In this document: piece after piece, positions 1 through 19,417 of the stretch
Layout of the letters: each line of letters begins with the position of its first letter
How positions within the stretch are numbered: position 1 is the first letter of the stretch
Origin: a virus
Virus genome (UHGV): UHGV-1532611
Length of the DNA stretch: 19,417 nt
Reading direction: 5' to 3' (one strand)
Made by a program: the position numbers and the translations under genes
The notes under the pieces: generated by a model
Told to the model about the DNA's origin: nothing
Seen by the model: only the letters and a program-made list of their open reading frames with translations
Database searches by the model: none

Positions 1-91
1 AAATTGAGCCACAGGACGTCGATAAAGGACGGTTTGGGGCGTCATATCGGGAGCTGCGGACCACTTAATCGCAACTTCCTTAGAAGTAACC

Positions 92-817
92 TTGATGGGT
101 CACAACGAACGAACCGTTTATATTCTTGCACATCGTAGCTTTATGACAATGAACGCTGAGGTTATCGATTCCCCTGCTTATAAAGAACTTCTTGCATACG
201 TTAAAGCACCGTTCAGAACAGCTTTGGGAAGAAAGGTTCCTTTAGCGTGGGTGAACGTCGATAGCTCAAACGGTCGAGCAACTAAAACAATCTATCGTTT
301 CTGCTCTCAGTGGACAAACCTGAAAGCAATTAAAGGTGCCAGCTCTGTTGATGCCCCTTATGTTCCAACGAAAATCACGAAAACCGGTGGTTATGAACTT
401 TATATGATTGGTGTAAACCAAGGAAAAAACTTAGTTCGTGAACTGCTAAACAGAAGCGTGAAATCTGGAAATACACCAGTCAGAGTCGAAATCTCTGATG
501 ATGTTCCAGATGATTACTGCGAACAGCTTATGTCCGAAGAATTAAAACGCTCTGGTAATACTGTTAGATGGGTTATTAAACAAGGCGGTGTTCGTAACGA
601 AGGTCTTGACTGCTTTAACTACGGTTATTGCGCGCGTCTGCAAGTTCTAGAGAAAATCAAATTTCACGAGTGGAGGAAACTCGCTGCTAAATCTGATATT
701 GAAATGCCAGAAGAACAAAACGAAACAAATTCTCCTGTTATTCAAACTCATGAACCTCGTCGAAACATTATCAAACGAAACAGACCAGTTAATAAGCCTC
801 GTGGTTTCGGATTATAA
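92..817 (+). CDS. Large terminase subunit, C-terminal region (GpA-like); 5' end is frame-disrupted or cut by the window edge
   Basis: Sits directly upstream of a W-position gene and a lambda-family portal. The C-terminal segment VRNEGLDCFNYGY resembles the conserved RNEALDC-type motif near the C-terminus of GpA-family terminases (recalled from memory, not searched). The first in-frame start is TTG 92 / ATG 95 with no clear SD; in-frame stops lie at 5-7 and 23-25. Confidence 0.6.
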   Translation: MMGHNERTVYILAHRSFMTMNAEVIDSPAYKELLAYVKAPFRTALGRKVPLAWVNVDSSNGRATKTIYRFCSQWTNLKAIKGASSVDAPYVPTKITKTGGYELYMIGVNQGKNLVRELLNRSVKSGNTPVRVEISDDVPDDYCEQLMSEELKRSGNTVRWVIKQGGVRNEGLDCFNYGYCARLQVLEKIKFHEWRKLAAKSDIEMPEEQNETNSPVIQTHEPRRNIIKRNRPVNKPRGFGL

Positions 818-2880: not shown

Positions 2881-2890
2881 ACTAAATACA
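2881..2890 (+). promoter_or_regulatory. Promoter-like motif actaaataca upstream of the capsid fusion gene
   Basis: Member of the recurrent intergenic motif family; the same 10-mer recurs inside the gene at 3427-3436. Confidence 0.3.
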
Positions 2891-2904
2891 TTCAGAAAAA
2901 CAAA

Positions 2905-2922
2905 GAGCGTCGAAAGACGCTC
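2905..2922 (+). promoter_or_regulatory. Stable GNRA hairpin in the 5' leader of the capsid fusion gene (not a terminator)
   Basis: gagcgtc-gaaa-gacgctc: perfect 7-bp stem with a GAAA loop, 16 nt upstream of ATG 2939, with no following U-tract. Confidence 0.35.
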
Positions 2923-2938
2923 CAACAGAGGACTGGTA

Positions 2939-4843
2939 ATGCTAAAACTTAAGCGCGATTACACAGTTCAGGGTATTGATTCTGTTGATGGTGTTTTTGA
3001 AATTGCGTTCAGTTCTGAAACTCCTGTTGAAAGACAGATTCAGGATGAATACGGTCAAAACATTACTGTTAATGAAATTCTCGTTCATGACGGCTCACAT
3101 AACGCTGACTTGACCCGAATTAATAACGGTGCTGCTTTGCTGTTTAACCATGATTTTGATAAACACTTGGGAATCGTTATTCCTGATTCTGTTCGAATCG
3201 ATGAAGACAAAATAGGACGAGCAAAAGTCCAATTCAGTCAACACGGTGAATTAGCTAAAGAAATCGGTGCAAAAGTTCAAGAAGGAACAATTAGTAAAAT
3301 CTCTTTCGGATATGACATTAATGAATATCACTTAGAAGGCGACAATCTTATTGTTACGAAATGGGCACCATATGAAATTTCTTTCGTCACTGTTCCTGCT
3401 GACGATAAAGTCGGTTTGGGAAGACTACTAAATACAGATACAACAAACAAACTTAACAAAGGTACTCGAATGAAACGTATTGATGAAATGACTAAAGATG
3501 AACTGGCAGAAATGACTATCGATGAAATTGAAATGCTGTCCGATGAAGATCGTGCAAAGCGTGAAGAAATTCTGGAAGAAGTAGTCGTTGAAAATGAAAA
3601 CGCTGGTGATTCTGCTGTTGAAAAAACTGATGACGCTCCTGCTGCTGTTCCTGCTGGTGACGAACTGACAGAAGAAGAACGCGAAGAAGAAGCGGAAGAA
3701 ATTCTTGAAATCGCACAACGCTACAAAGTAGCACAGAAAGACGTTGCAAGCGCTATCGCTAAAGGCATGACCGCACGTCAATTCAAACGCTCTATTAAAC
3801 CTAATAAATCTGCAACGGTGATTCGCAACATGACTAAAGATACTAAACAAACTCTGGAAAATAAATTCGACCTTGGCGATGCTGTTCGCTCTATGATGAA
3901 TGGTAAAGCTGTTCGCGGTGCTGCTGCTGAATATACTCAAGAAATGTCCCGTAAGCGTCTGATGCGCGGTGCTAACGTTTCTCAAGGTATCTATATGCCA
4001 GTTAGTGCTCTGCAAGGCAAACGCGCTATTAACACTGTATCAACTGTTTCCGCAGTACAAGAAACTGTTCAGCGTTATGATTCATTCGTTGAAATGCTGT
4101 TGAAAGACACTGTTGCTGATAAGCTGGGAGTTAACTTCCTGACTGGTCTGACTACTCCGATTTCTGTTCCTAAGCAGACAAAATCAAGTGTTGATGCATT
4201 CGGTTTCGTTGATGAAAACGGTGAATCTCCAGAAGGCGAAAGCAAATTCGAAAACATTCAGTTTATGCCTAAGACATTTACTGGTGGTAACCCGATTTCT
4301 CGTCAAGCTCTGTTGACTCTGCCTAATCTGGGTGCGTTCATTTCTGACCATATCGTGAATTTCTCACGCGCTAAACTGGAAGGTCTGATGTTCGGTTCTA
4401 TTACCGACGCAAAAGCTCCTCAGTCTATCGTTGCTCAGTTAGTAGCAAAACAGATGGGAATGACCTACAAAGAATTCGTTGTTGAAGCTGCTAAAGCTAA
4501 AGGCGACGGCGTAGCAATGGACAAGTTCAAATATTTGATGGCTGCTGCTCTTGAAGGTGATTTGAAAACCACTCTGCGTGACGCTGGTGTTGCTGGTTAT
4601 ATCATCGACGACCTGAACAAACTGGGCGGACATGATGTTATCGGTTCCGGTCTTGTTAAAGAAGGTCAGGTTATCTCTGGTGACTTCTCTGCTGTAACCG
4701 TAGCTGAGTGGGAAGGTCTTGCTCTTGACCTAGACGACACAACTTACCGTAACAAAGGCGCTATCGTTCCTCGCGTTTGGGCTGATATCGATTGGAAAGT
4801 TTGTGCTGATGATCGTCTGTTCCTGCACGAAAAACAAGCCTAA
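2939..4843 (+). CDS. Prohead protease - scaffold (delta-like) - major capsid protein fusion
   Basis: 634-aa continuous ORF. Residues 1-170 have the HK97-type prohead protease (S78/U35) pattern (NHDFDKHLG, ISFGYD, EISFVTVPADD). Residues about 175-290 are acidic and helical (EEEREEEAEEILE), like a scaffold or delta domain. The C-terminal ~350 aa are of major-capsid size and composition. A terminator follows the gene. Confidence 0.8.
   Translation: MLKLKRDYTVQGIDSVDGVFEIAFSSETPVERQIQDEYGQNITVNEILVHDGSHNADLTRINNGAALLFNHDFDKHLGIVIPDSVRIDEDKIGRAKVQFSQHGELAKEIGAKVQEGTISKISFGYDINEYHLEGDNLIVTKWAPYEISFVTVPADDKVGLGRLLNTDTTNKLNKGTRMKRIDEMTKDELAEMTIDEIEMLSDEDRAKREEILEEVVVENENAGDSAVEKTDDAPAAVPAGDELTEEEREEEAEEILEIAQRYKVAQKDVASAIAKGMTARQFKRSIKPNKSATVIRNMTKDTKQTLENKFDLGDAVRSMMNGKAVRGAAAEYTQEMSRKRLMRGANVSQGIYMPVSALQGKRAINTVSTVSAVQETVQRYDSFVEMLLKDTVADKLGVNFLTGLTTPISVPKQTKSSVDAFGFVDENGESPEGESKFENIQFMPKTFTGGNPISRQALLTLPNLGAFISDHIVNFSRAKLEGLMFGSITDAKAPQSIVAQLVAKQMGMTYKEFVVEAAKAKGDGVAMDKFKYLMAAALEGDLKTTLRDAGVAGYIIDDLNKLGGHDVIGSGLVKEGQVISGDFSAVTVAEWEGLALDLDDTTYRNKGAIVPRVWADIDWKVCADDRLFLHEKQA
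3427..3436 (+). promoter_or_regulatory. Internal copy of actaaataca, 33 nt upstream of the in-frame ATG at 3470
   Basis: Identical 10-mer to 2881-2890; followed by an SD-like aaaggta (3457-3463) and ATG 3470 (Met178 of the fusion ORF). Confidence 0.3.
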
Positions 4844-4844
4844 G

Positions 4845-4874
4845 AAAAGCAAAAGCAAAAGCGAAAGCGAAAGC
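4845..4874 (+). repeat. Tandem hexanucleotide repeat (RAAAGC x5) just after the capsid gene stop
   Basis: aaaagc aaaagc aaaagc gaaagc gaaagc, starting 2 nt after the TAA at 4841-4843 and ending 20 nt before the terminator. Confidence 0.6.
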
Positions 4875-4894
4875 TGAAACTGCTGAATAATCAG

Positions 4895-4920
4895 AGGACT
4901 CCTTCGGGAGTCCTTTTTTC
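4895..4920 (+). terminator. Intrinsic terminator after the capsid gene
   Basis: 8-bp stem aggactcc / ggagtcct around a UUCG tetraloop, followed by a run of six T. Confidence 0.75.
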
Positions 4921-4929
4921 GTTTCTGGA

Positions 4930-4940
4930 CTAAATATAAT
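4930..4940 (+). promoter_or_regulatory. Promoter-like motif ctaaatataat upstream of the 4955 gene
   Basis: Immediately downstream of the capsid terminator; also contains a TATAAT hexamer. Confidence 0.3.
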
Positions 4941-5649: not shown

Positions 5650-6675
5650 ATGACAAACGATATTTTTGTAGGAAATAACGTCAGAGTTTCAGTTAATCCG
5701 CTAATCGTTGAAATCCCAGGATATAACGACCCAGGTTATGTAAGCACTGATAAACTGGCTGCATTCCCTGTTATCGGATTTAGAAAAGAAGTTCAGACAC
5801 TAGAAGATTACAGAACCGATTTCACAACGAAACTTTCAGGTGACGTAACAATTAACGACACTTCAATAAGCTTATTTGAAGACAGTTCTGACCCAGTTTA
5901 TCAGTTGCTTGATGAAGCTCTTATGGAAAAGAAACTCCTTAGATTCAGAAGTCTTTATGTTATCGATGGAGAAACAAAGAAAGATAATGATGCTGGTCTT
6001 TATCATATTTTTAATGCTTATGTAACGAAGAAAGAAACATCAGGTTCGGCTAACTCAGTCGTTACAACAACTTTTAATCTTTCTCCTGATGGTCAGTTGT
6101 TTACAGGTTTTGCTGAATTCTCAGTTCCGTTAAACGTTGGCGATTATGGTATTGGTGCTGGTACAGAAGAAATCGCAGGCGTTAAAGACTTAGGATTATT
6201 AACTGGTAACAGATGTGTAACAGTCGATGCAACAAACAGCGATAACCCTTATAACTCTGGCACGTCTGCTATGGCTATTCAGCATCCTGATGGTCAAGGT
6301 TGGGAGCTTATTGGTTCGTCAGTCGGTAATCCAAGCATCAGAATCAGAAACAAACAACAAAGCGGTGAAACTGTTACTGAATCTCCGTGGGTCAAAGTCT
6401 ATACAGAACTTGAACGTCCAACTCCTGAAGATATTAATGCTTTGCCTATTACTGGTGGAGAACTCAAAGGATCTTTGACTATTCAGGAATATCTGAACGT
6501 TCGTAAAAAGATTTCTGCGCCACAAGGTGAAATCTTGGCTCTAAATAGTAATGAAATTAACTCAACTTCTGTCAAGGTCAAAGGCAAAGAAGTCTATTCT
6601 CCAAGTAATAAACCAACGCCATTAGAGATTAATTGTGTAGCGTTAGGAGAAACCTTAGACGCAGGAGTATTTTAA
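5650..6675 (+). CDS. Major tail (tube) protein, gpV-like N-domain plus a ~180-aa C-terminal extension
   Basis: Directly follows the U-like gene as V does in lambda. The N-terminal ~160 aa are paralogous to the 9833-10309 product (AFP..G..EV.T......KL.G......D shared). The C-terminal half is Ser/Thr/Gly-rich, consistent with an Ig-like decoration domain as in gpV. Confidence 0.65.
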   Translation: MTNDIFVGNNVRVSVNPLIVEIPGYNDPGYVSTDKLAAFPVIGFRKEVQTLEDYRTDFTTKLSGDVTINDTSISLFEDSSDPVYQLLDEALMEKKLLRFRSLYVIDGETKKDNDAGLYHIFNAYVTKKETSGSANSVVTTTFNLSPDGQLFTGFAEFSVPLNVGDYGIGAGTEEIAGVKDLGLLTGNRCVTVDATNSDNPYNSGTSAMAIQHPDGQGWELIGSSVGNPSIRIRNKQQSGETVTESPWVKVYTELERPTPEDINALPITGGELKGSLTIQEYLNVRKKISAPQGEILALNSNEINSTSVKVKGKEVYSPSNKPTPLEINCVALGETLDAGVF

Positions 6676-6687
6676 CGGATAAAGAAA

Positions 6688-9600
6688 ATGGCAAATAATA
6701 AAGTTAAACATTATAGAACAGACGTCGCCGGAAGAAAGCCAGAAGCGAAAAACATGCTTGATGGTGAAATCGCTATTAACTTAGCCGATAAAAAGATTTT
6801 TACTAAATTCGGTGACGCTGTTATTAACATCGGTAATGGTGCTGATGCTGTTGTTGAAGGCGGTCAGACCTTTACTGGAAAAATTAAAGCAAGTGATATT
6901 GAATCCGATTCTAATCTGACTTTAAAAAATCTTGATAAAAGCGATATTGTTTTTGCTGATGAACACGACAAAGCAAAAGCACGTATTAGTTCTCCTGCTC
7001 AGACAGACTCTAAAGGTGAACTTCGTGTTACGGTAGCGAAAGGAAAAGGTACAGGAGAGAGTTCTGACTTCGTGCTTAACGGTAATGGTCAGTTATCTTT
7101 GCCTGCTGCTCCTGTTGCTCCTGATAGCGCTACGCGTAAAGATTACGTTGATTCTGAAATCAGCAAAGTTCAAACAGGTTCAAGTGCTGACCTGACGAAA
7201 CTCGAACAGAAAGTTGATGCTAACGACGCTGCTATTAACACTCGCGTTGATAATCTGAATTCAAAAGTTGACCAGAACGACACGGCTATTAATACGAAAG
7301 TTGATGCGAATAAAGCTGATGCTGACGAAAAGATTAAAGCAGTTAATGACCGTTTGACTGTTGATAATCAGACTCTGAAAGACATGATTGACACCAAAGT
7401 TAATAAAGCTGGCGACACGATGACTGGCGACTTAACTGTTCCTTCTGTTCATGCTGCTGGTAATGTATACGCAGGAACTTTGAAAGTTACACCTGCTGGT
7501 AATAACGGTGATGTTCTGAGTATTGAAAACCACGGCAGAACTTCAAAGACTATTCATCAAATTGCATACGCAACGGATACGGATGATCGACTGTTATTTC
7601 GTCGTGATGCTAACGAAGGAACCGACGCATTAGATCTAATGACCATGACTTGGGGAAAAACAGGCAGAGGAATGTCAATTGATATTTCAGGTCAAGCTAG
7701 AATCACTGATGCAGTAACAACTCCTTTAATGTCCGTTGCAAGCAACTTTGCCGTTGGAAATTCACTGGGTTTAAACTCTATCGCGATTGGTGATTCCGAC
7801 ACTGGTTTTAAATGGAGAGAAGACGGATGGTTAAACTTCTATTCAAATAACGTTGTAACAGCTTCTATTGCAGGATCTGAAAACTACTTTAATAGAAAAA
7901 CTCATTTCCGTTTCAGAAGTGATGATGGTGATTCGAATCTGATGGCTCCTGAAGGTTATTCATTAATTAATATCGATACGACAACCGACGGTAATAACAT
8001 TGGTGACGCCACGACTTATTTCGGATTAGTTAATGGTGGAAAATATAATCATTATCTGAGAGGTTCAGGCAGAACTTATATTGATACTAAAGAAGGTCTT
8101 GGTGTTGCTGGCCCTGCAAGTTTCTATAAAACGATTTATAATAATAAGCCTTACGGATGGTATGACTCGGAAAGCTTACCCGACTGGAACACTCCTGAGC
8201 AACAATCAAATCATTTAAGAAAAGTTAGAGCCGTTGGTGCTGGATCCATTTATCATGAGTTGGCAATGGCTAATCATCCTGACGATAGGCTGGATAACTC
8301 TATATGTTGGTTTCATGGTGATACTCCTGAATATTGGATGGGTTCATTAAACACCAATGGTCGATTGAATCTTGCAAGTGGTGTTTCTGTCAACGGCGAA
8401 TCTAATGCTATTCAGTTGAATATTCCTGCGTCGAATCAGGCAAGTTATATGTCTGGCAATATGGACGGTCGCAATAATACCTGGATTCTTGGCAAGACAA
8501 GTGAGAATCTCGATATTGTCTGGTCTCAGAATATGAGAAATGATTTCTCTACGTCATCTGGTGTTACTCTTAGAACTAACGGATCCGTGACGGTTCAGAC
8601 TGGTACTAATACCGCGATGGATATTCAGCATAATACAATTCAAATTGATGGTGCAAGATGGGCAGCAACCAATGATCATGCTTACGCTAATCAATGGAGA
8701 CAAAATGCTCCTATGCAGATTAACTTCGGAGCAGTTGCTGGTGAAAGTGATTATTATCCCGGATATTCGATGAACTCTGTTTCCGTAGGACACGGATTCT
8801 CTACTGTTGTTGAATTAGGAACTATTAGAGGACCAGCTAATTCATGGGGCAAAGGAATTCTTCGTGTTGGGACGAAAGAAGAATCGACGTTCGGTAAAAT
8901 GGCTAATTATGAATTTGATATCGATGGTCGTTTTGCTGTTCCTGGAAAAATTAATACTCCTTCTGTTGAAACAAATCGTTTAACAAGTTTTGGTATTAAC
9001 ACGGACAACGTACTAGGTGGAAACTCAATCGCGTTTGGTGATAACGATACAGGTATTCGACAAGTTACGGACGGAAACTTAAGCATTTTTACTAATGGTA
9101 TTCAAATCGCAACCTTTAACACAGCTGGTTTGACAATTGATCGGTCAATTACGATTAACACCCATAATGAGTCTCGCGGTGTTTATGTTGGAAACGTTAG
9201 AACCGGGGCAAGCAATGCGATGATTCAAGGTGTCGTTGACGGTTGGCCGCAGTGGTCAGCGTGGCGTGATCGTCCTGCGGGAATGATTGTTGAAGCTCAG
9301 ACTCGTGATAAATGTATTAATATCTGGAAACATGTTCATTGGGGCACAGAATACGGTGCTGCGATGGACATTTATAATCCGGGTAGTTCTGCTCCCGAGG
9401 CTGCACTTCACATTGGTGGTGCAGACTATCTATTCCTCGGTAATGGAACAGCAAATGCGATCCAATGGGTTAGCACTTCTGATAAACGTCTGAAATCGAA
9501 CTTTGAAGAAATTGAAAACGCAGTTGATAAAGTCGAGAAACTTACTGGTTACGTATACGATAAGAAATCTGATTTAGTCAAAACTGAATATTCATTCGAA

Positions 9601-9771
9601 GTTCGTGAAGCAGGTATTATTGCTCAAGAACTGAAAGAAGTATTACCAGAAGCTGTTAGTTCTTTCGGACCTGACGAAATTCTTGGTGTTAACTCTGCTG
9701 CTGTAAACGCGTTGCTGGTTAATGCTATCAAGGAATTAAGTGCTCGCGTTAAAGAACTTGAAGCTAAATAA
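6688..9771 (+). CDS. Tail fiber protein with C-terminal S74-type intramolecular chaperone (auto-cleaving) domain
   Basis: 1027 aa. Contains the KAGDTMTGDLTV phage-fiber repeat motif, a helical repeat region (DANDAAINTRVDNLNSKVDQNDTAINTKVD), two copies of an LG.NSIA.GD.DTG motif, and the C-terminal SDKRLKS...GIIAQEL...AIKEL domain that closely resembles the T5 pb1 / K1F endosialidase chaperone domain. Confidence 0.88.
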   Translation: MANNKVKHYRTDVAGRKPEAKNMLDGEIAINLADKKIFTKFGDAVINIGNGADAVVEGGQTFTGKIKASDIESDSNLTLKNLDKSDIVFADEHDKAKARISSPAQTDSKGELRVTVAKGKGTGESSDFVLNGNGQLSLPAAPVAPDSATRKDYVDSEISKVQTGSSADLTKLEQKVDANDAAINTRVDNLNSKVDQNDTAINTKVDANKADADEKIKAVNDRLTVDNQTLKDMIDTKVNKAGDTMTGDLTVPSVHAAGNVYAGTLKVTPAGNNGDVLSIENHGRTSKTIHQIAYATDTDDRLLFRRDANEGTDALDLMTMTWGKTGRGMSIDISGQARITDAVTTPLMSVASNFAVGNSLGLNSIAIGDSDTGFKWREDGWLNFYSNNVVTASIAGSENYFNRKTHFRFRSDDGDSNLMAPEGYSLINIDTTTDGNNIGDATTYFGLVNGGKYNHYLRGSGRTYIDTKEGLGVAGPASFYKTIYNNKPYGWYDSESLPDWNTPEQQSNHLRKVRAVGAGSIYHELAMANHPDDRLDNSICWFHGDTPEYWMGSLNTNGRLNLASGVSVNGESNAIQLNIPASNQASYMSGNMDGRNNTWILGKTSENLDIVWSQNMRNDFSTSSGVTLRTNGSVTVQTGTNTAMDIQHNTIQIDGARWAATNDHAYANQWRQNAPMQINFGAVAGESDYYPGYSMNSVSVGHGFSTVVELGTIRGPANSWGKGILRVGTKEESTFGKMANYEFDIDGRFAVPGKINTPSVETNRLTSFGINTDNVLGGNSIAFGDNDTGIRQVTDGNLSIFTNGIQIATFNTAGLTIDRSITINTHNESRGVYVGNVRTGASNAMIQGVVDGWPQWSAWRDRPAGMIVEAQTRDKCINIWKHVHWGTEYGAAMDIYNPGSSAPEAALHIGGADYLFLGNGTANAIQWVSTSDKRLKSNFEEIENAVDKVEKLTGYVYDKKSDLVKTEYSFEVREAGIIAQELKEVLPEAVSSFGPDEILGVNSAAVNALLVNAIKELSARVKELEAK
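9478..9768 (+). other. Region of the tail fiber gene encoding the S74 intramolecular chaperone domain (aa 931-1027)
   Basis: The SDKRLK motif begins at codon 9478-9480, followed by the conserved GxxAQELKEVLPE and AIKEL...ELEAK segments; released by autocleavage in known homologs. Confidence 0.75.
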
Positions 9772-17079: not shown

Positions 17080-19417
17080 ATCACGTTATGACGTCGAGAT
17101 TAACGGAGATAACAAAGGCCTATCAATTTCTATTGACAAGTCCATGAAGAAACTGAATGAACTCGATTCAGTAGCTAATGGACTTTTTAGTAATATGACA
17201 GGACCGTTGAATAATCTCAACAACGGAATCTCAGGTATTGCAGGAATGTCCAAGGGTATGCAAGCTCTGGGGATTGCAGGAATGGCAGCAGGTGCAGGTG
17301 TAGCTGTTCTTAATACCGCGTTAGAAAAAACGAGAGAACTCAATCAACTCTCTACATCAACTGGTCTTTCAGTTGAATATCTGCAACAACTTAAAAATGA
17401 ATTTCGCGAAACAGGTATGGAGATTGACCGTTTCGGAGATTTAAACAAAGACACATTAGATAAACTTGGCGATTCATTCAGAGAAGGTCATGGCGGTATT
17501 GCAGACGACCTCAAAGAATGGGGTATTGGTCTTGAACAGTACACACAATACGTCAACGATGCCCAAGGCGGTATTAAAGCGCTTGTTCAGACTTATTATG
17601 ACCTGAAAGCTGCTGGTGCAAGTCAAGCTGAAATCGTGAACGGAATGGAGTCAATGGCTTCTGATGCTTCACATTTGATTTCAACTCTTGAAAAATACGG
17701 TTCAACTCAAGACGCATTAAACGCTATTAACAATCGTTCTGTTGATATCACAAACGAAACAGCAAAAGAATATAAAGAATTCGACGAAAACATGAAAACG
17801 TTAACCGTCAATCTGGATAATCTAACTGTTAACGTTATGAGTCCGTTAGTTAAGAAAATGAACGACCTGTTCGAAATTGCTAATAAAGATTGGACAGCAA
17901 GTAACTTTTTAGACTTCATGGGAACATTAAGCACGTTGCGTCCTGATGCTGCTCTTTCTGATTGGGCTGCCGAAGCGACTGTTAACAAAATGGGCGAATG
18001 GATGCCTAATGCGGGTTTTGCTAAACGTAGAAAAGCAATTGCAGATGAAGAAAAGTTTCAGAAAGATATTGCCGCAGCAAGAATCAAAGCTGATGAAAAT
18101 CTTCGTTTACAGCAAGCAAATGCTAAAACTGCCGCAGATCTGAAAAGAAAAAAAGATGCATTAGCTGCCGAAGACGCTAAGAAAGAAGCTGAAAAAGCTA
18201 AACGCGAAGCTGACAAAATAGCAAGAGAAGCTAAAGCTGCTTATGATAAGATGATGCAAGAGCGTCAGACAGCGTTACAGAATCTTTCCAGTCTTGATGC
18301 TGCAATTCTCAGTCAAGAAGGCAGAACTATTTCTAGTCAAGTCAGTAAAGTTAGAGAAGCTGTTGAAACAATCGACGAACTTGAAAAGAAAGGAATAATC
18401 AGCGCTACACAGGCAAATCAACGTCGTAAAATGCTTTTTGAGAATTCAAACAAAGAATTCAAACAAACTCTTATGGCAAGTCCTGAAGAAATCGGTGCTA
18501 TTACGTCGAGTCTTGAAATCGTATATCAACAACAACTTGAACAACTCGAAGCTAAGAAAGCCCAATCGCTTATCGGTCAGAAAGAATATAATTCTCAGTT
18601 AGAAGCTATTCAGAAAGACCATCAGCAACGTCTTGAAGCAATTAAAGCGACTGCTGGCGATGGTAATATGTCTAATCTTAAAAATCTTGATGCTATCGGT
18701 TTTGCAACTGATGAAGAAAAAATGGCTATTCAACAGAAAATGTTGGAAGAACAATTTCAGAAGATGCAAGAACAGAACCAAAAGCTATATGACGGACAAT
18801 TGATTTCTTATGAAGATTATCTCAAACAGAAACAGCGTCTTGAGCAAGCTTATGCGGTTAAATCGAAAGCAATTACTTTCACTGAGATTCAGACAAAACT
18901 CCAGATGTATAACGGTTTTGCTTCTGGTATGGGTGCAGTTATAGCCGGTATTTCTGGTGAAAACTCTAAAGCTGCTCAAGCAATGTTTGCAGTTGAAAAA
19001 GGAACAGCAATCGCAAGCGGTATGTTAAACGCTTATGAATCAGCAACTGCTTCAATGGCAAAATATCCTGGTCCTTTAGGTTACGCTCTGGCTGCTTCAA
19101 GTTATGCAAGAGTTATCGGACAAGTCATGCAGATGAAATCAGTGAATCTTACTGGTATGGCTCACGATGGTATTTCTAATGTTCCAAGAGAAGGGACATG
19201 GCTGCTTGATGGTGGCGAACGTGTCGTTGATGAAAGAACAAACGGCGACTTGAAAGACTTCTTAGATAATCAGAAAACAGGAGGCGAAACAAAAATCGAC
19301 GCAAGTATTCACGTTTCAGGGAATGTTACTGATCAGCGTTGGTTTGCTGAACAATTAAAACGTCAGCAACAGAACATCGCGGCTATTGTTCAAGACAGCA
19401 ACAGACGCAAGATGTAA
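17072..19417 (+). CDS. Tail tape measure protein
   Basis: 781 aa, largely helical and Ala/Gln/Lys/Glu-rich, with Gly/Ala-rich hydrophobic segments near both ends (GIAGMAAGAGVAVL; GMGAVIAGISG), directly after the G/T-like chaperone pair. Using the lambda rule of about 0.15 nm per residue this predicts a tail of roughly 115-120 nm. Confidence 0.8.
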   Translation: MAKSRYDVEINGDNKGLSISIDKSMKKLNELDSVANGLFSNMTGPLNNLNNGISGIAGMSKGMQALGIAGMAAGAGVAVLNTALEKTRELNQLSTSTGLSVEYLQQLKNEFRETGMEIDRFGDLNKDTLDKLGDSFREGHGGIADDLKEWGIGLEQYTQYVNDAQGGIKALVQTYYDLKAAGASQAEIVNGMESMASDASHLISTLEKYGSTQDALNAINNRSVDITNETAKEYKEFDENMKTLTVNLDNLTVNVMSPLVKKMNDLFEIANKDWTASNFLDFMGTLSTLRPDAALSDWAAEATVNKMGEWMPNAGFAKRRKAIADEEKFQKDIAAARIKADENLRLQQANAKTAADLKRKKDALAAEDAKKEAEKAKREADKIAREAKAAYDKMMQERQTALQNLSSLDAAILSQEGRTISSQVSKVREAVETIDELEKKGIISATQANQRRKMLFENSNKEFKQTLMASPEEIGAITSSLEIVYQQQLEQLEAKKAQSLIGQKEYNSQLEAIQKDHQQRLEAIKATAGDGNMSNLKNLDAIGFATDEEKMAIQQKMLEEQFQKMQEQNQKLYDGQLISYEDYLKQKQRLEQAYAVKSKAITFTEIQTKLQMYNGFASGMGAVIAGISGENSKAAQAMFAVEKGTAIASGMLNAYESATASMAKYPGPLGYALAASSYARVIGQVMQMKSVNLTGMAHDGISNVPREGTWLLDGGERVVDERTNGDLKDFLDNQKTGGETKIDASIHVSGNVTDQRWFAEQLKRQQQNIAAIVQDSNRRKM

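Follow-up and report, generated by a model that had tools for sequence, protein, structure and literature searches.

When one continuous chain comprises prohead protease, scaffold, and major capsid protein, does its gene deliver all three in equal numbers, or does it hold a second, shorter gene that yields capsid protein without the protease? This question is raised by an open reading frame (ORF) on the + strand of a 19,417-nucleotide (nt) stretch of DNA catalogued as UHGV virus genome UHGV-1532611; the whole stretch is referred to here as the window. The ORF (2939–4843) starts with ATG and encodes a single chain of 634 amino acids (aa) that runs from the protease through a linker and the scaffold to the major capsid protein. 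A prediction made from the sequence alone (hereafter, the original prediction) had proposed internal initiation just after the protease, at ATG 3470. We find that a linker cassette consisting of a CTAAATA motif, an A-rich leader, a Shine–Dalgarno (SD) sequence, and ATG 3470 (Table 1) is conserved, and we consider it likely that this cassette makes a nested scaffold–capsid product.

Conservation of the candidate nested start

ATG 3470 lies in frame with the full-length start codon ((3470 − 2939)/3 = 177) and thus corresponds to Met178; initiation there would yield a 457-aa protein. The SD-like aaaggta named in the original prediction is present upstream of this ATG, although at 3458–3464, one base away from the position given (3457–3463); three further Met codons within the 21 codons after Met178 have no SD. 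Thirteen diverged homologues, drawn from IMG/VR, the DCP80 record, and genome assemblies retrieved through an exact protein-sequence match, were compared (minimum pairwise identity 40%); a scan of genome contigs gave distant relatives only (≤48% identity in the best segment). All 13 homologues presented NTAAATA at one shared alignment column, directly after the conserved ...VPADDxVGLGR end of the protease, and no other column of the gene presented it in more than two of the 13. In the window, this internal copy spans codons Leu164-Asn165-Thr166. The codon preceding the invariant Asn165 is CTA in nine homologues, ATA in two, and TTA in two; in these genes CTA and TTA together account for 19% of Leu codons, and ATA for 2.6% of Ile codons. 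Asn165 itself is encoded by AAT in all 13, though AAT and AAC are used about equally; by comparison, a single codon was kept in only 8 of the 44 invariant two-fold-degenerate columns.

An in-frame start codon follows the motif by 39–72 nt in every homologue (ATG in 12; GTG, with a GAGGA SD, in L054), and each of these starts is preceded by an AAGGA-type SD whose energy (−3.9 to −8.4 kcal/mol) falls in the range also found at the full-length start. The nested-start SD occupies three codon phases among the homologues, encoding K-G, K-E/E-G, or R-K, which suggests conservation at the nucleotide rather than the protein level; motif and start are separated by a spacer of freely variable length and sequence. 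Comparison with relatives, named in the original prediction as a way to check internal initiation at Met178, thus supports it, with motif, SD, and in-frame start kept in 13 of 13 homologues; the nested 457-aa scaffold–capsid product is well supported comparatively, if unproven. The conserved internal motif, ribosome site, and start codon probably yield this protease-free protein in addition to the full-length chain. The further argument that a strict 1:1 fusion is implausible on stoichiometric grounds is not compelling, because some homologous fusions have no start codon in the linker.

Phages and prophages commonly have protease–capsid fusion genes, for which the routine annotation is one "major capsid protein". 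If the nested start is real, each such gene would encode a pair of assembly proteins, which explains how less protease than capsid protein can be made, and both the annotation of these genes and their expression for structural work would change.

The repeated motif and expression of the capsid gene

The 10-mer ACTAAATACA was found at 2881–2890 and at 3427–3436, exactly as predicted. By our own arithmetic, chance alone should produce approximately 180 pairs of identical 10-mers in 19.4 kb, so the repeat is uninformative alone; its core motif is far beyond chance. CTAAATA presented nine copies in the window, all on the + (coding) strand, and seven of these fall 15–80 nt ahead of a gene start (binomial p = 1e-7, given that this zone covers 6% of the window); CTAAATA ranks first among all 7-mers in the zone. 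The shorter TAAATA presented 12 copies on the + strand (10 of them 15–80 nt before gene starts) and none on the − strand, and is depleted in gene interiors (2 observed vs 6.2 ± 1.9 in synonymous-codon shuffles; P = 0.03). Junctions between genes in the window show the recurrent order terminator hairpin, motif, SD, ATG. Across seven related loci, 58 of 92 motif copies lie 15–110 nt before starts (median 39.5 nt; range 17–108 nt). The structural region of the complete chromosomal island to which the window belongs (see below) has 14 copies on the + strand and none on the other, and a divergent gene pair in this island has one copy per strand, each oriented toward its own gene. The only other intragenic CTAAATA in the window (6541–6547) is located within a 341-aa tail gene, 147 nt before the gp37-like fiber gene (6688); it has an equivalent-position copy in L046 and is probably the fiber-gene promoter. 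The idea that each island uses one motif variant, matched by its internal copy, was rejected as only partly true, as variants are mixed within islands and the internal copy in L008 and L048 is the rare TTAAATA.

T4-family late promoters (TATAAATA) are recognized by gp55 with gp33 and gp45. CTAAATA/TAAATA matches this motif in sequence, with TATAAATA itself and the variants NCTAAATA, AATAAATA, and (A/G)CTAAATA all lying within the published spectrum, in which A occurs at −13 and a/gC at −13/−12 in phage Aeh1 (PMC2988020). As in T4, the element is an 8-mer resembling TATAAATA with no −35 box, strictly oriented upstream of late genes and followed by AT-rich DNA, and UUCG-tetraloop hairpins stand between genes; a σ70 promoter scan found no σ70-type promoter at either the upstream or the internal copy. 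Different from T4, the setting of the motif is here a chromosomal island that encodes a lambda-type portal and an HK97-type head but none of gp55, gp33, and gp45. Because the repeated 10-mer contains a motif of T4 late-promoter type, the nested gene probably has its own transcript.

The two copies of the motif at the capsid gene precede different leaders. The upstream copy, which 10 of 13 homologues share as a CTAAATA-type motif located between −52 and −58, is followed by a GC-rich hairpin; the other junctions have the opposite order, hairpin first and motif second. No T-run follows this leader hairpin on the + strand of the window; 10 of 13 homologues also have a hairpin at this position, with stems that differ in sequence, and in some homologues a T-run does follow, which could attenuate transcription. 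Located after the upstream motif, the hairpin may attenuate the full-length transcript. The leader of the internal motif is A-rich and unstructured. A search of the whole window against Rfam matched no family.

Table 1. Coordinates of features in and around the capsid gene (window numbering, except for the island)
Feature	Position	Strand	Remarks
Late-promoter-like CTAAATA (in 10-mer 2881–2890)	2882–2888	+	57 nt upstream of full-length start codon
GC-rich GAAA-tetraloop hairpin, 5′ leader of full-length gene	2904–2923	+	between motif and SD
SD AGAGGA of full-length gene	2927–2932	+	−5.8 kcal/mol
Full-length ORF	2939–4843	+	634 aa; ORF call, Pfam, homologues, structure model
HK97-type (S78) prohead protease domain, aa 1–150	2939–3388	+	PF04586; block-mean pLDDT 76–89
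Disordered linker, aa 153–179, with internal motif, leader, SD, Met178	3395–3475	+	pLDDT <50
Internal late-promoter-like CTAAATA (10-mer 3427–3436)	3428–3434	+	42 nt upstream of ATG 3470
SD-like AAAGG	3458–3462	+	7 nt before ATG 3470
Candidate nested in-frame ORF, Met178 to stop: scaffold + capsid protein	3470–4843	+	457 aa
Acidic helical scaffold-like (delta-like) segment, aa 181–345	3479–3973	+	model helices H186–342
HK97-fold major capsid domain, aa ~383–634	4085–4840	+	PF05065, Foldseek, R4C alignment
Intrinsic terminator (UUCG hairpin + T-run)	4893–4926	+	strong; closes capsid transcription unit
Next CTAAATA	4930–4936	+	25 nt before next gene (4955)
~34-kb chromosomal island	L023 2639–36533		

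This layout suggests how two products might arise. Transcripts from the internal motif would start approximately 6–7 nt after it, about 28 nt upstream of ATG 3470, and would be translatable only into the 457-aa scaffold–capsid protein, while transcripts from the upstream motif (2882) would have to run through the leader hairpin and would give the protease-bearing 634-aa chain, with extra short form perhaps arising by internal initiation on the same long transcripts. Two 3′-coterminal mRNAs would thus give a minor 634-aa chain and a major 457-aa chain. The procapsid would then consist mostly of scaffold–capsid subunits, with a minority of full-length subunits carrying the protease inside covalently, and the tethered protease would trim both forms, removing everything N-terminal of the mature capsid domain of ~270 aa.

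Right after the capsid stop codon and before the terminator, the window has five tandem AAAGCN units (aaagca aaagca aaagcg aaagcg aaagct; 4846–4875) in the frame of the ORF; relatives have short Lys/Ala-rich C-terminal extensions instead.

The fusion protein, its relatives, and rival readings

The 634-aa ORF contains the protease and capsid domains that the original prediction had assigned to it. Peptidase_S78 (PF04586; MEROPS S78, formerly U35) was matched at aa 63–156 (E 1.4e-10; 41.9 bits, above the family cutoff of 21) and Phage_capsid (PF05065) at aa 380–623 (E 1.3e-6; 28.5 bits, cutoff 24.2), and an AlphaFold2 model of the chain, built from a 19-sequence alignment (mean predicted local distance difference test score (pLDDT) of 70), places a helical segment between them. 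His50, His71, His76, Ser100, Ser122, and Ser148 are invariant across 19 sequences, and the linker (aa 153–179) differs in sequence and length between homologues. The possibility that the fusion is an artefact, with a sequencing error having erased a stop codon between separate protease and capsid genes, was raised already in the original prediction as a "corrected sequence". It is refuted by these comparisons: the fused ORF is intact at the DNA level at 13 diverged loci, two complete E. coli genomes contain the capsid-gene sequence without any difference, 120 of 120 database proteins among the matches listed have both Pfam domains, and isolated phages are also annotated with such fusion genes.

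Foldseek matched the modelled capsid domain best to the capsid of roseophage R4C (8GTA, 1e-16) and then to that of HK97 (1OHG, 1e-11), and a PDB profile search matched 8gta_A at 1.4e-31; the 268-aa R4C chain aligns with profile positions 382–636, and aa ~383–634 probably represent about the extent of the mature capsid protein. The R4C gene encodes a homologous 629-aa fusion, of which the mature-shell structure resolves only the C-terminal ~268–270 aa, consistent with removal of protease and scaffold during maturation; the published R4C structure and proteomics work is silent on the protease/scaffold portion of the fusion.

Full-length homologues with 26–31% identity were found in at least 25 phage records, including those of phiHAP-1, VP882, ECO1230-10, Arya, Bas97, Persinger, S-CBS1, and the RcCronus and R4C groups (Cronusvirus), and ClpP–gpT fusions have been noted in Paracoccus prophages (PMC6536676); the protease–capsid fusion architecture itself is therefore already known. 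None of five inspected records of such fusion phages annotates a nested product. A Met that has a strong SD and directly follows the protease domain is nevertheless the top in-frame ATG of the ORF in R4C (Met189; −9.5 kcal/mol, exceeding the SD of the gene itself), VP882 (Met185; −7.1 kcal/mol), Persinger (Met216; −6.1 kcal/mol), and phiHAP-1 (Met152; −5.9 kcal/mol), and ranks second in Bas97 (Met217; −6.1 kcal/mol). These five fusions have no T4-type motif. Translational nesting thus looks ancestral to the fusion family, and the clade with T4-type promoters seems to have added the internal promoter motif. Near the scaffold–capsid boundary there is another conserved in-frame Met, in the context VIR[KNT]M (Met298 in the window, position 3830). 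Its SD is weak in the window (−3.0 kcal/mol); in L010, L012, L015, L016, and L024–L027, AAGGA is found 8–11 nt upstream of the aligned Met, suggesting that the Met298 equivalent is an alternative nested start in lineages without a linker start. Our literature searches found no description of nested starts in protease–capsid fusions, although such silence is not proof of novelty; new here is the conserved nested cassette with an internal T4-type promoter motif in such a fusion, the strategy itself being known.

Some observations weigh against a nested product driven by its own promoter. The SD before ATG 3470 is weak in the window (−3.9 kcal/mol; only in the top 11% of in-frame internal ATGs) and is also the weakest of the set compared. 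Prophage-type fusions L010, L012, L013, L015, L016, and L024 have no start in the linker, so a nested product beginning at the Met178 position is neither obligatory nor universal, and distant fusions without the motif also show a hydrophobic residue followed by D/N at the motif position (GRSLD, GRSID, GRAFD), so part of the conservation may be at the protein level. The latter two observations, together with our own arithmetic, by which there could be room inside a capsid for the 38-kDa N-terminal part of every subunit, favor the view that there is no nested product: the fusion would be used 1:1 and processed by self-cleavage only, with motif and Met kept for protein reasons (a cleavage site or domain cap) or as a relic of two once-separate genes. 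The conservation of an xTA codon followed by AAT in 13 of 13 homologues goes beyond protein constraint, however, as does an SD kept in three reading phases that encode different residues, and a relic would not outlast divergence to 40% identity while the motif-to-start spacer varies freely; we therefore regard this view as improbable.

The conserved SD and ATG could also reflect a translation start only, with ATG 3470 used on the full-length mRNA in the manner of lambda C/Nu3 and the internal CTAAATA not acting as a promoter. The distant fusion phages that share the SD and ATG arrangement without a T4-type motif are in line with this explanation. It leaves unaccounted for a motif that is retained in all 13 homologues via rare codons, that elsewhere occurs almost exclusively upstream of genes and is depleted within them, and that stands at a distance from the start codon (39–72 nt) fitting the range found for other genes; we consider translation alone unlikely to be the whole explanation. 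A nested gene with a promoter-like motif, a ribosome site, and a start codon of its own accordingly remains the reading we prefer.

Known viral assembly genes offer parallels for such a nested gene. The original prediction had likened the arrangement to lambda C/Nu3; the in-frame nesting with conserved SD and start stands, and the internal promoter-like motif makes herpesvirus UL26/UL26.5 the closer analogue. In UL26/UL26.5, a shorter in-frame 3′-coterminal gene with its own promoter is located inside the protease-bearing ORF; an excess of assembly protein without protease is produced as a result, and the protease itself reaches the procapsid attached to assembly protein. The predicted arrangement here likewise has a protease ORF with an in-frame 3′-coterminal shorter gene and an internal promoter-like motif. 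It differs in that the herpesvirus major capsid protein is a separate gene, whereas the capsid domain is present in both products here, and in that the promoter predicted here is of T4 late type. PMC11565193 describes the herpesvirus nested protease–scaffold strategy as conserved.

The likeness to lambda C/Nu3, and also to Mu I/Z, lies in a nested in-frame scaffold with a shared C-terminus and an internal ribosome site and start. Lambda C/Nu3 works by internal translation initiation on one mRNA, its capsid protein (gpE) is separate, and its protease belongs to a different family; here the capsid protein is fused and a promoter-like motif is added. With HK97 gp4/gp5 the gene shares the S78 protease family and the HK97-fold capsid, and the predicted 457-aa product has the layout of HK97 gp5 (T5 pb8 is also comparable), with an N-terminal scaffold-like (delta) domain followed by the capsid protein. 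HK97 has a separate protease gene and incorporates the protease non-covalently, while here the protease is proposed to be covalent on a subset of subunits. The closest likeness in sequence is to fusions of the R4C/phiHAP-1/VP882 type, which show full-length homology, the best structural match (8GTA), and in five cases an SD and ATG after the protease, yet have neither the T4-type motif nor an annotated nested product. If true, a nested start here would extend the nested-gene solution of lambda and herpesviruses to fused capsid genes.

The island and a possible T4-like helper

From position 80, the window is 100% identical to an island of approximately 34 kb located between ybiT and ldtB in E. 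coli MS 115-1, and the capsid-gene query (2939–4843) is also 100% identical in E. coli strain 2021CK-01361. An exception to the identity with MS 115-1 is a 33-nt (11-codon) repeat-unit indel in the tape-measure gene (window 18221–18241). The island encodes a complete siphovirus-type virion set (terminase, head–tail joining protein, lambda-type portal, the fusion gene, tail tube, tape measure, distal tail protein, hub, J-like tip, and gp37-like fiber), together with a large serine recombinase, a TIR protein, retron Ec67, a lysozyme, and a T4-type endonuclease VII that includes the T4 dimerisation domain; one weak GntR-like match fell below the Pfam cutoff. The same minimal layout recurs in relatives from Klebsiella, Enterobacter, Serratia, and Salmonella, whose fibers contain gp34, gp36, or gp37 domains. 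The fiber of the window (6688–9771; 1027 aa) matches the family of the T4 long-tail-fiber distal subunit (phrog_1699, E = 1.4e-114), and its top phage-database matches listed are all from T4-like phages of 165–183 kb (34–40% identity).

No replication genes or late-gene activators were detected in the island, which in this respect does not resemble an autonomous temperate prophage, and tblastn of gp55, gp33, and gp45 from T4 and DCP80 against all island loci found no homologue (best E = 0.7). Known phage satellites are without most or all virion genes and hijack those of a helper; the island encodes virion genes and thus falls outside the P4-like, PICI, capsid-forming PICI, PLE, and PICMI families. 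Because no gp55-like factor is encoded, its promoters would be served by a superinfecting T4-like phage, which suggests that the island depends on a T4-like helper for late transcription. We tentatively propose that the island and its many relatives in Enterobacteriaceae represent a new phage-dependent element, which encodes a complete siphovirus-like virion without replication or late-transcription machinery and needs T4-like superinfection for expression and probably for replication. Every structural gene, the nested capsid gene included, might then carry a T4-family late promoter, and the T4-like phage would possibly supply gp55, gp33, and gp45, the reverse of classical satellites that borrow virion proteins. 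Counted as hints for this proposal were the motif statistics, the lack of gp55, gp33, and gp45, endonuclease VII, the T4-like fibers, and co-assembly in DCP80. Our literature searches found no T4-dependent, virion-encoding island described, a silence that again is not proof of novelty. If this wiring of the late genes of a chromosomal island, its capsid gene among them, to T4-like transcription is true, T4-like phages have an unrecognized class of dependent elements in E. coli, Klebsiella, Enterobacter, Salmonella, and Serratia; such elements also carry defense systems, as with the TIR protein and retron Ec67 of the island studied here.

There are difficulties with this proposal, which also weigh against the nested product with its own promoter. 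Without gp55, gp33, and gp45 in the island, the promoters would be silent in the absence of a helper, and T-even phages degrade cytosine-containing DNA and block its transcription. In addition, the terminase gene of the window copy is broken by an insertion sequence (IS) element, and this copy may be defunct. Positions 1–85 (to approximately 97) of the window match >140 unrelated Enterobacterales plasmids at 96–100% identity, in one case directly after an IS5-like ISEc68 transposase gene; since the window thus begins with an IS5-like end and aligns with the island only from position 80, the large-terminase gene appears to be cut by an IS5-like element. An assignment of window positions 1–97 to the IS3 of MS 115-1 was rejected, as this IS5-like end is absent from MS 115-1, where the terminase gene is cut elsewhere, by IS3; IMG/VR contigs L002 and L009 are without that IS3, and IMG/VR contig 3300045988_152555 has an uninterrupted terminase. 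The two terminase disruptions are independent events. A phage-plasmid identity for the element was also rejected, because the plasmid search matched the IS end only.

Above ~31% identity, the capsid gene has a single relative in the phage database, located in the first ~25 kb of the Escherichia phage DCP80 record (GenBank PQ671644; 141 kb; L001 and L020–L022), which is labelled as a complete Gaprivervirus genome. This record contains three rIIA copies and duplicates of primase, gp46/47, and other T4-like regions at 94–98% identity, and holds T4 gp23, gp21, and gp22 alongside the unrelated ~25-kb siphovirus-type module; DCP80 was therefore rejected as a large phage relative and is taken to be an assembly that is mixed or chimeric. 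Within the record, the module occurs once and in colinear order, and it represents the complete structural module of a relative beside T4-like DNA. It presents ten perfect copies of TATAAATA on the + strand and none on the − strand, and TATAAATA also precedes the gp22, soc, and sheath genes of DCP80 itself.

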